Of a stretch of DNA of 64,000 bases, positions 33,666 through 34,663 are shown one piece after another (positions within the stretch are counted from its first letter, which is position 1; every line of letters begins with the position of its first letter). The translations under genes were made by a program, and so were the position numbers. Under the pieces are notes generated by a model, which saw only the letters and a program-made list of their open reading frames with translations, made no database searches and had not been told where the DNA came from. Origin of the DNA: Nitrospirota bacterium (GTDB lineage: Bacteria > Nitrospirota > Thermodesulfovibrionia > Thermodesulfovibrionales > JdFR-85); assembly GCA_035873375.1 (NCBI GenBank), contig JAYWMQ010000017.1, positions 728 to 64,727 of the forward strand. Reading direction: 5' to 3'.

Positions 33666-34663
33666 GGGGTCAGGTCTCAACATTCAACATAACTAACTGT
33701 CTTTACTTGTCTTTCCTATCTTGTCTTCATACCTTTTACATGCCTGAGATACTGCAGCATAGTCCATTCGAAACATCTCGCCTATCTCTTTGAGGCTCAG
33801 TGATGTATATCTCTTCAGCAGGTAAAGCGCCATCTGACGATACATATTTCCACGTTTCTTGCTGAATATCTCTTCACGGCTGATCGAAAGTTCCCCCATG
33901 ACGTGCTGAATAATCTCCTCCGGCGTATATGCTTCTGCTTCTCTTGTCTCAGATATCTCTCTTTTACGCCCAACGGACTGAATCTTTTCTTTAACTGTTT
34001 CTATAAACCTTCCCTTACCAAGGACAATGCCCTTATATGAGTCCTTCAGAGGATTTTCCATATAAAGATTTTTAAGCACATAGTTTTCATACTTCTTTTG
34101 TGCCCTGCGGGGGTCTTTATCAAACTGTTTAAGGATAAACTCGGTATCAAGCCGTGCTACAGGCCTCCTTTTCCCGATATATTCAGGATAACTGCTCCAT
34201 CGGTATTCTTCGGGATTATTAACCATACCGGCCCGAACAGGATTTGCATGGATGTAGGCCGAGAGCTGAACTGCATAACTGTCTTCTTCAACTACAATTG
34301 ACTTGTATCTCCCCTGAAACACTACACCCACGACCTTATGCTTTGCCTTAAACCAGTTGGTATAGGAGGCATTCAGGTAGTGCATCCCCTCTGATATGTT
34401 GGCAAGCGGGGTCTTTATAAAAAGGTGATAATGATTATCCATCAGGCAATAGGCATAGCACACAAGGGAATATTTATCGCACGTCTCTCCTGTTTTATCA
34501 AGGAATATCCGCCTGTCATCATCACCATAAAAGATATTTTCCTTACGGTTTCCCCTTGCTGTTATATGATAAACAGCATTCTCAAAGGATAGTCTTAAAG
34601 GTCTTGCCATGGGTAAATCTTATCATTTACACCCCCTTATGTCAAATGTTGAGACCTGACCCC
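33666..34663. mobile_element. REPtron-like unit: an IS200/RayT-type gene bracketed by perfect 19-bp inverted repeats
   Basis: GGGGTCAGGTCTCAACATT (33666-33684) and AATGTTGAGACCTGACCCC (34645-34663) are exact reverse complements. Similarity extends about 8 bp further inward (CAACATAA / TTATGTCA). Confidence 0.55.
33693..34610 (-). CDS. IS200-like Y1 (HUH) transposase / RayT-like protein with C-terminal DnaA-C-like HTH
   Basis: 305 aa. YHITARGN, the HUH motif DNHYHLFI, the Tyr motif AYIHANPV, and a C-terminal LKEIGEMFRMDYAAVSQA HTH. Confidence 0.88.
   Translation of the reverse strand: MARPLRLSFENAVYHITARGNRKENIFYGDDDRRIFLDKTGETCDKYSLVCYAYCLMDNHYHLFIKTPLANISEGMHYLNASYTNWFKAKHKVVGVVFQGRYKSIVVEEDSYAVQLSAYIHANPVRAGMVNNPEEYRWSSYPEYIGKRRPVARLDTEFILKQFDKDPRRAQKKYENYVLKNLYMENPLKDSYKGIVLGKGRFIETVKEKIQSVGRKREISETREAEAYTPEEIIQHVMGELSISREEIFSKKRGNMYRQMALYLLKRYTSLSLKEIGEMFRMDYAAVSQACKRYEDKIGKTSKDS

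Follow-up and report, generated by a model that had tools for sequence, protein, structure and literature searches.

Which kind of element occupies the DNA directly downstream of murJ in this Nitrospirota bacterium, and is it one that moves? The stretch analysed, hereafter the window, comprises 64,000 nt (NCBI GenBank assembly GCA_035873375.1, contig JAYWMQ010000017.1, positions 728 to 64,727), and it contains a 998-bp unit in which one gene is bracketed by terminal inverted repeats (TIRs). We consider that this unit is probably a TIRtron, an insertion sequence (IS)-like unit of about 1 kb encoding a TIRYT protein of TnpA_REP subclass 2.1.2, the subclass being assigned by domain content and not by position in the published phylogeny (PMC6006769). 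The TIRtron/TIRYT class is already known and is experimentally uncharacterised. The locus is an intact example of it, having its two ends, a promoter and a gene on which purifying selection acts, and its features are the following.

33666..34663, minus strand: whole TIR-bounded unit ('TIRtron'), 998 bp; bounded by inverted repeats, with the same ends recurring in unrelated contexts
33666..33690, plus strand: gene-distal (3′) TIR, GGGGTCAGGTCTCAACATTCAACAT, a 'CAACA-type' arm (compare the 3′ ends at homologous loci L002 and L221)
34639..34663, minus strand: gene-proximal (5′) TIR, minus-strand reading GGGGTCAGGTCTCAACATTTGACAT, which is the family consensus
34617..34645, minus strand: predicted sigma-70-type promoter, TTGACA-17-(TG)TAAGAT, 10/12 matches, extended TG
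33693..34610, minus strand: TIRYT gene, 305 aa, encoding a Y1-HUH nuclease, a linker and a DnaA-domain-IV-like helix-turn-helix (HTH); based on the open reading frame (ORF), Pfam, AlphaFold2/Foldseek and the ratio of non-synonymous to synonymous substitution rates (dN/dS)
34245..34583, minus strand: Y1-HUH nuclease domain, residues 10-122 (Pfam Y1_Tnp, E 7e-13)
34425-34433, minus strand: HUH motif, H60-Y61-H62, invariant in a 46-sequence alignment
34254-34256, minus strand: candidate catalytic tyrosine Y119, invariant in the 46-sequence alignment
33732..33923, minus strand: DnaA domain IV-like HTH, residues 230-293 (Pfam Bac_DnaA_C, PF08299, E 1e-15)
Within the HTH at 33732..33923, minus strand: recognition-helix motif D283-Y-A-A-V-S-Q289 plus R293; most TIR-sharing homologues retain AVSQxx(K/R)R

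A repeat-bounded cassette downstream of murJ

The initial annotation of this DNA had proposed that perfect 19-bp repeats flank the gene, that partial similarity continues inward from them and that the left repeat begins 8 nt after the murJ stop codon, and all of this was borne out. GGGGTCAGGTCTCAACATT at 33666-33684 (plus strand) forms an exact 19-nt inverted pair with its reverse complement at 34645-34663. The perfect match amounts to 20 nt once the preceding A is counted, and the inverted arms reach 34 nt at 88% complementarity (33659-33692 and 34637-34670). The murJ ORF ends at 33658, leaving 7 nt before the repeat. At the outer end of both TIRs, the GGGGWSAS motif is present as GGGGTCAG (33666-33673 and, on the minus strand, 34663-34656). 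When up to three mismatches were allowed, GGGGTCAGGTCTCAACATT had only these two copies in the window, where 0.02 matches are expected by chance, and none of 100 window shuffles contained two or more matches. A single ORF lies between the arms (33693-34610, minus strand, 305 aa), and no second transposase gene was found among the ORFs of the 998-bp unit. Searches for Rfam families gave none at threshold in the region or in the whole window, and no tRNA genes were found in the window.

Two further observations concern the immediate surroundings of the cassette. A 22-nt direct repeat of 86% identity, which may be due to chance, links the 3′ end of the TIRYT gene (33736-33757, TTACATGCCTGAGATACTGCAG) with the start of a neighbouring 99-aa ORF (34751-34772, TTATATGCAGGAGATACTGCAG). 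This ORF is cysteine-rich and starts with GTG (34726-35025), and just upstream of its start, about 30 nt beyond the right repeat, a 26-nt indel distinguishes the window from the related contig L001 (34691-34716).

A RayT-like nuclease fused to a DnaA-type HTH

The gene product had been described as a 305-aa protein joining a Y1 HUH core to a DnaA-C-like HTH, and we reached the same view. The motifs DNHYHLFI and AYIHANPV are found in the 305-aa ORF, and the Pfam matches to Y1_Tnp and Bac_DnaA_C are both above their cut-offs. Residues H60-Y61-H62 and Y119 are invariant in distant TIR-sharing homologues as well (the 46-homologue alignment starts after M1, so its numbering is one lower). The AlphaFold2 model of the protein had a pLDDT of 78.9, and its best Foldseek match in the PDB was 4ER8, the complex of E. 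coli RayT with a REP hairpin (E 1e-5, TMt 0.68), followed by the transposases (TnpA) of ISDra2, IS200 and IS608. The match to 4ER8 is significant by structure alone, its sequence-profile E value being only 0.56. The C-terminus superposed on 1J1V, DnaA domain IV on its box, with a root-mean-square deviation of 1.5 Å and 34% identity over 73 columns, and the PDB sequence-profile match to the same entry had an E value of 1.9e-7. DnaA models matched residues 222-304 only, with scores far under their cut-offs. For residues ~213-225 the confidence of the model was low, which agrees with a flexible tether preceding the HTH. The base contacts of E. coli DnaA, which we take to be H434, T435 and H439 in the 1J1V complex, correspond in our own alignment to Y284, A285 and Q289 here. 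Altogether, the protein joins a RayT-like Y1-HUH domain, that of a single-strand DNA nuclease, to a DnaA-domain-IV HTH, its activity being predicted from sequence and modelled structure.

The same repeat accompanies homologous proteins

TIRs beginning (G)GGGTCAGG(T/C)CT were present in 9/9 homologues that had been found through the protein (29-77% identity) and that are thus unbiased for the repeat. These nine loci span unrelated gene neighbourhoods, several phyla and two plasmids. Specifically, the element lies among toxin-antitoxin genes at L002, beside formate-dehydrogenase-like and two-component genes at L009, and at L012 with a helicase gene on one side and a DUF763 gene on the other; the remaining loci are L216, L219, L220, L221 and one plasmid each of Legionella adelaidensis and Sporomusa termitida. 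Seven of the nine carry a 24-30-nt repeat that is a few positions off the window 25-mer. The upstream repeat stands about 25-55 nt from the start codon in 7/9 and 69-97 nt in the two plasmid copies, and the downstream repeat lies at most ~20 nt past the stop codon or overlaps the ORF end in 8/9, that of L219 being ~100 nt away. The protein family is large: clustering at 90% identity gives more than 5,700 clusters, and at 50% identity 1,869 clusters have an E value of 1e-30 or better; a protein-profile scan of viral contigs found no relatives.

In a distant subfamily (L033, L054, L122, L129 and L031) the ORF end enters the 3′ repeat, where ...LLNVET-stop is encoded by TTGAATGTTGAGACCTGA and NVET plus TGA by AATGTTGAGACCTGA; in the same subfamily a leader with GGAGG follows the promoter. 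At L012, comparison with the sister contig L013 revealed a 245-bp tandem duplication (3945-4200; 99.2% identical) of the 3′ end of the element, the repeat and an 11-nt flank, which yields a 64-aa ORF with DnaA_C only and a third repeat copy, and which L013 lacks. As this is a plain tandem duplication in which 11 nt of flank were copied along, we rejected the extra TIR/DnaA_C fragment as a product of transposition.

Gene-less doublets and solo copies are dispersed across phyla

One genome per GTDB species was scanned for exact matches to the 17-nt core GGGGTCARGTCTCAACA, giving at least 120 loci in more than 10 phyla. Among the matches listed were Desulfobacterota, Atribacterota, Verrucomicrobiota, Clostridia, Nitrospirota and Aminicenantes, as well as Methylomirabilota, Omnitrophota, Aerophobetes, Acidimicrobiales and others. 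Within this same list, only about a dozen loci had a TIRYT gene (30-53% identical, arms ~1 kb apart), and about 40 had a single copy of the repeat. In the loci analysed, gene-less head-to-head doublets of 37-216 bp numbered 64, versus 14 full units of ~1.0-1.5 kb. The commonest doublet measured 55 bp, made up of a flawless 25-bp stem closed by a 5-nt loop, and folded at -30.3 kcal/mol (z -11.5). Some doublets retain one TTGACA-type and one CAACA-type arm, as does the full unit of the window, and this mixture fits an origin by internal deletion of a full unit.

Several metagenome-assembled genomes (MAGs) gave 3-4 loci each, with some copies within about 200 nt of contig ends. The TIRYT gene and doublets occurred together in the MAGs CAYMYS, JBBIRT, DATKEE and JAQVGY. 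One MAG contained an intact and a truncated copy that were 97% identical over 389 nt and had unrelated flanks.

Solo perfect 25-mers (L019, L030, L067, L102, L107, L126, L130 and others) had no partner in the 8-kb chunk. Several of the solo copies examined have their outer edge next to a host gene's 3′ end or overlapping it, and at some of these loci the repeat supplies the stop codon of that gene. Satellites and repeat-end arrays directly adjoin some repeats (L033 at ~1119-1160; L122 at ~3460-3493 and 4790-5110), the satellites being host-side units of 9-12 nt in at least three copies and the arrays consisting of repeat ends in the same orientation.

An old resident of the murJ locus

Comparison of the regions downstream of murJ, as the initial annotation had suggested, showed that the cassette at this site is common only to relatives with at least 95% MurJ identity. 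It was found at the same murJ site in contigs with 95-98% MurJ identity (L001, L134-L137), and 76 metagenome loci with 56-69% MurJ identity had no cassette, their downstream genes being missing as well. The TIRYT gene had a dN/dS of 0.087 versus L001 and of 0.051 versus L136, and its synonymous divergence (dS) of 0.23-0.35 was similar to that of murJ (0.25-0.28). Both TIRs are identical in three lineages (window, L001 and L136), the gene-distal one included, though the adjacent promoter spacer has changed. No sign of recent movement was seen in this lineage. The cassette is thus an old resident, with purifying selection on gene and repeats.

In two close relatives, the insertion site itself shows a small difference. 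L136 (~5540-5551) and L137 lack ~19 nt exactly where the murJ-side repeat has its outer edge, corresponding to 33647-33665 of the window, and their murJ reads into the repeat and stops inside it (...FRRKGVRS...), with the inverted repeat extending to AGGAAAGGGGTCAGG... on both sides.

Such persistence could also mean that the unit is a domesticated, immobile resident, in which TIRYT is kept for a host role, for instance acting in trans on doublets, in regulation or in DNA processing. A host role has been proposed for single-copy RAYTs (PMC5581495). We regard this explanation as possible though rather doubtful; it overlaps the TIRtron reading and differs from it only on the activity of this copy. 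The shared insertion site in all relatives with 95-98% MurJ identity, the closeness of gene and murJ dS together with a dN/dS of 0.05-0.09, and the finding of just one gene copy and of no additional TIR within 64 kb all speak for it. However, both TIRs have been perfectly maintained, as a still-mobile unit would also require, and elsewhere the full cassette occupies many contexts, plasmids included, and can be present twice in one MAG; moreover, the view of this genome covers 64 kb.

A promoter embedded in the gene-proximal repeat

The -35 box of the predicted promoter (TTGACA, 34645-34640) lies inside the gene-proximal TIR, and TIR-embedded TTGACA recurs in homologues. The -10 box ends at 34617, 6 nt ahead of the ATG, and no Shine-Dalgarno sequence was found before this start codon. 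With this spacing and no Shine-Dalgarno sequence, the TIRYT mRNA is probably leaderless, judging from the sequence.

The position of the -35 box within the upstream repeat, and the terminator-like look of the A-rich/T-rich doublet flanks, would suit repeats that are purely regulatory, with an operator/promoter upstream, a terminator-like site downstream and no role in mobility. We find this very unlikely, since gene-less doublets and solo copies occur by the dozen at a distance from any TIRYT gene and since the whole unit has been transposed to unrelated contexts, with breaks exactly at GGGG.

Anatomy of the ends

In an alignment of 231 copies, conservation set in abruptly at the first G, giving a sharp outer edge at GGGG, and the flanks of the repeat were A/T-rich. 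On the inner side, conservation ran past the imposed 17 nt as TT(T/C)(G/A)ACA, with ACA at ~90%, so that the unit measures 24-25 nt; the 25-bp TIR consensus is GGGGTCAGGTCTCAACA-TT(T/C)(G/A)ACAT. A lone TIR arm had a minimum free energy of 0 to -1 kcal/mol with z of about 0, indicating no secondary structure, and no GTAG was found beside the TIR. A REP-like hairpin formed by the single repeat was rejected because there is neither self-complementarity nor GTAG. Being unstructured, a lone arm is not a REP, and it would form a duplex only in double-stranded DNA or when paired with its partner arm. As for target-site duplications, a 4-nt direct flank repeat was found in 0/71 elements (null expectation 0.5), which speaks for insertion of the HUH type and against a DDE mechanism.

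Short tandem duplications across the outer boundary were present at 18/242 ends (7.4%), compared to 0.17% at random anchors. The duplicated unit joined 6-11 nt of host flank to the initial bases of the repeat, and its breakpoint fell after GGGGTCA (TIR nt 7-8) in 11 cases and after GGGGT(C) in 2. In addition, GGGTCA occurred at most 30 nt outside the ends 25 times, versus 1.1 in shuffles. These duplications may be read as scars of a recurrent break, with a candidate nick between GGGGTCA and GG. They were seen at L018, L034, L036, L048, L057, L076, L077, L099, L221 and others; at positions 33650-33666 of the window there was no clean case of flank plus GGGGTCA duplication.

The structure of the ends makes it highly improbable that the unit is an ordinary IS200/IS605 element that uses subterminal hairpins on one strand and carries inverted repeats only incidentally. 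The Y1_Tnp match, the structural matches to IS200, IS608 and ISDra2 TnpA and the lack of target-site duplication would agree with such an element, yet its ends are 25-bp inverted repeats, each hairpin-free, which already contradicts it; furthermore, the repeats are conserved family-wide, and the protein is twice as long, has an added HTH and is structurally closest to RayT, not to TnpA_IS200. Although TIR units with miniature TIR-TIR derivatives look like IS/MITE (miniature transposable element with inverted repeats) pairs, it is hardly credible that the repeats belong to a DDE IS or MITE moved by another transposase with the Y1 gene as a passenger, given that there is no target-site duplication, that the repeat goes with the protein family in 9/9 protein-anchored loci down to 29% identity and that no other transposase gene lies inside the unit.

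A proposed mechanism and its weight

On the reading of the unit as a TIRtron, the promoter within the repeat would drive transcription of the gene into a probably leaderless mRNA. The HTH would bind the TIR as a duplex, either as ordinary double-stranded DNA or as the stem of paired arms in single-stranded DNA, doublets then folding into a 25-bp hairpin and the 1-kb unit into a panhandle; most plausibly, to judge from its sequence, the DnaA-IV-type HTH reads the conserved 25-bp end. When bound at the gene-proximal repeat, it may also repress its own promoter (autorepression). Like RayT and IS608, the tethered HUH/Tyr domain would cut single-stranded DNA at the repeat ends or just within them and rejoin it, with no duplication left, and the unit or doublets would move by an IS200/RayT-style 'peel-and-paste'. 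Because, with symmetric ends, any single strand begins or ends with GGGGTCAGG and has the complement CCTGACCCC at its opposite terminus, the nuclease could treat both alike only if the arms pair, and such pairing into a stem would explain the doublets as a successful miniature form. Insertion of the window copy downstream of murJ would predate the divergence of the sampled relatives, and the unit would have been kept intact since, apparently as a single copy.

A broader proposal, which we put forward tentatively, is that these elements could constitute a distinct, very widespread IS-like family, in which a DnaA-type reader of double-stranded DNA recognises a near-invariant 25-bp end, as a duplex or as a hairpin stem, and directs an HUH nick between GGGGTCA and GG, the doublets being REPIN analogues that spread horizontally across phyla. 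If true, this would be a hybrid of double-stranded DNA recognition and single-stranded DNA cleavage that is not described for IS200/IS605 or RayT, and the doublets would not be lineage-private.

Several points weigh against the TIRtron reading. The protein scored 69.9 bits with the NCBIfam RayT equivalog NF047646, under the cut-off of 80. Greater conservation of the HTH domain than of the nuclease among TIR-sharing proteins was unsupported, as only the recognition-helix motif is kept. A third TIR copy was looked for in the 64-kb window, also with a 12-nt core search, and none was found; a strictly syntenic empty site, searched via MurJ relatives, was not recovered either. The relatives share the site and the window has no extra TIR, which leaves the mobility of this copy only putative. 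The loci of the genome scan were chosen by their 17-mer match, so the conservation of their TIRs is partly by construction. Finally, our literature search found no TIRYT biochemistry, and we infer the binding of the HTH to the TIR, the cut site and the single-strand route.

These considerations also settle how far the remaining proposals of the initial annotation carry. A mobile cassette of ~1 kb is supported at the level of the family, with full units in unrelated contexts and twice in one MAG, and not as recent mobility of this copy. As the source of a repeat family, the element is supported by the doublets and solo copies of other genomes; the window holds no further copy, and such a family is unproven here. 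A 19-mer that occurred nowhere else, at a locus syntenic in all relatives, had been named as the contrary outcome, and the core of the 19-mer occurs at at least 120 other loci.

The comparison across the family yields testable predictions, namely the 25-bp binding site, the candidate nick position, the catalytic residues and the doublets as substrates. In practical terms, TIR elements break metagenome assemblies and alter the 3′ ends of genes, as for murJ in a close relative. The literature on TIRYTs is sparse (PMC3733652, PMC6006769) though the family is large.

Comparison with known systems

With DnaA domain IV on the DnaA box (1J1V) the protein shares the HTH fold. In contrast to DnaA it has no AAA+ module (domain III) and its N-terminus is a Y1 nuclease, so that identity with the replication initiator was ruled out, and the window TIR does not resemble the DnaA box TTATCCACA. 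The unit differs from DDE IS and MITE in that it shows no target-site duplication and that the product of its sole ORF is an HUH protein.

IS200/IS605 elements have asymmetric subterminal hairpins and a single-domain TnpA of ~130-150 aa. PMC6006769 describes them as having imperfect subterminal hairpins and no TIRs. The present unit shares with IS608 and ISDra2 the Y1-HUH domain and insertion without target-site duplication, and departs from them in its symmetric 25-bp TIRs and its 305-aa two-domain protein.

A REP is a species-specific, imperfect palindrome of 20-40 nt with a GTAG or CGTC tag. The unit had been called RayT-like and REPtron-like, and the first of these terms stands, 4ER8 being the best fold. 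Like the REPtrons of E. coli and Pseudomonas (RayT with REP/BIME/REPIN), it has a gene bracketed by an inverted dispersed repeat, its head-to-head doublets form long hairpins and are the analogues of REPINs, and here its gene is present once and shows signs of having been inherited vertically. Unlike them, the window repeat has no self-structure or GTAG and is conserved across phyla, the protein has an extra HTH of the double-stranded-DNA type and falls under the NF047646 cut-off, and the full cassette is also found on plasmids and in multiple copies. Failing the features of both the REP palindrome and the RayT equivalog, a REPtron was rejected, and the term was replaced by TIRtron/TIRYT.

TIRtrons have been defined as RAYT-like genes (TIRYTs) flanked by long inverted repeats that share GGGGWSAS (Di Nocera, De Gregorio & Rocco 2013, BMC Genomics 14:522, PMC3733652). 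In that study 26 examples came from complete genomes, only the 8-nt motif was noted as shared, and some TIRs formed moderately abundant families of singles, dimers and groups in the same genome. Most TIRYTs were later placed in TnpA_REP subclass 2.1, whose branch 2.1.2 carries Bac_DnaA_C and was equated with TIRYT by its authors (Quentin, Siguier, Chandler & Fichant 2018, BMC Genomics 19:475, PMC6006769). They found the TIRYT repeat unlike the DnaA box and no REP-like repeats near subclass 2.1.2 genes, and they left open whether the HTH reads the ends. Our search of the literature after 2018 for TIRYT-like systems returned nothing beyond these two studies, and a search for the repeat sequence itself gave no match.

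The element described here shows every TIRtron/TIRYT feature that was tested, that is, a RAYT-like Y1 gene, long non-REP TIRs and GGGGWSAS, together with the C-terminal Bac_DnaA_C-like HTH that is the trait of subclass 2.1.2. As in the TIRtrons of PMC3733652, the distances between gene and TIR are short and fixed, the TIRs are long and non-REP, and they start with GGGGTCAG; unlike in those, one 24-25-nt TIR is near-invariant over more than 10 phyla, mostly of uncultivated anaerobes, and 55-bp perfect hairpin doublets are commonest, the window showing two flanking copies only. With subclass 2.1.2 the element shares the RayT-type Y1-HUH core and its Bac_DnaA_C extension, and differs in that TIR doublets lacking the gene are here abundantly dispersed in several genomes. 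Three points appear to be absent from PMC3733652 and PMC6006769, all of which concern the family rather than the window locus: the near-invariant 25-nt end across phyla, the predominance of doublets and the clustering of breakpoints.

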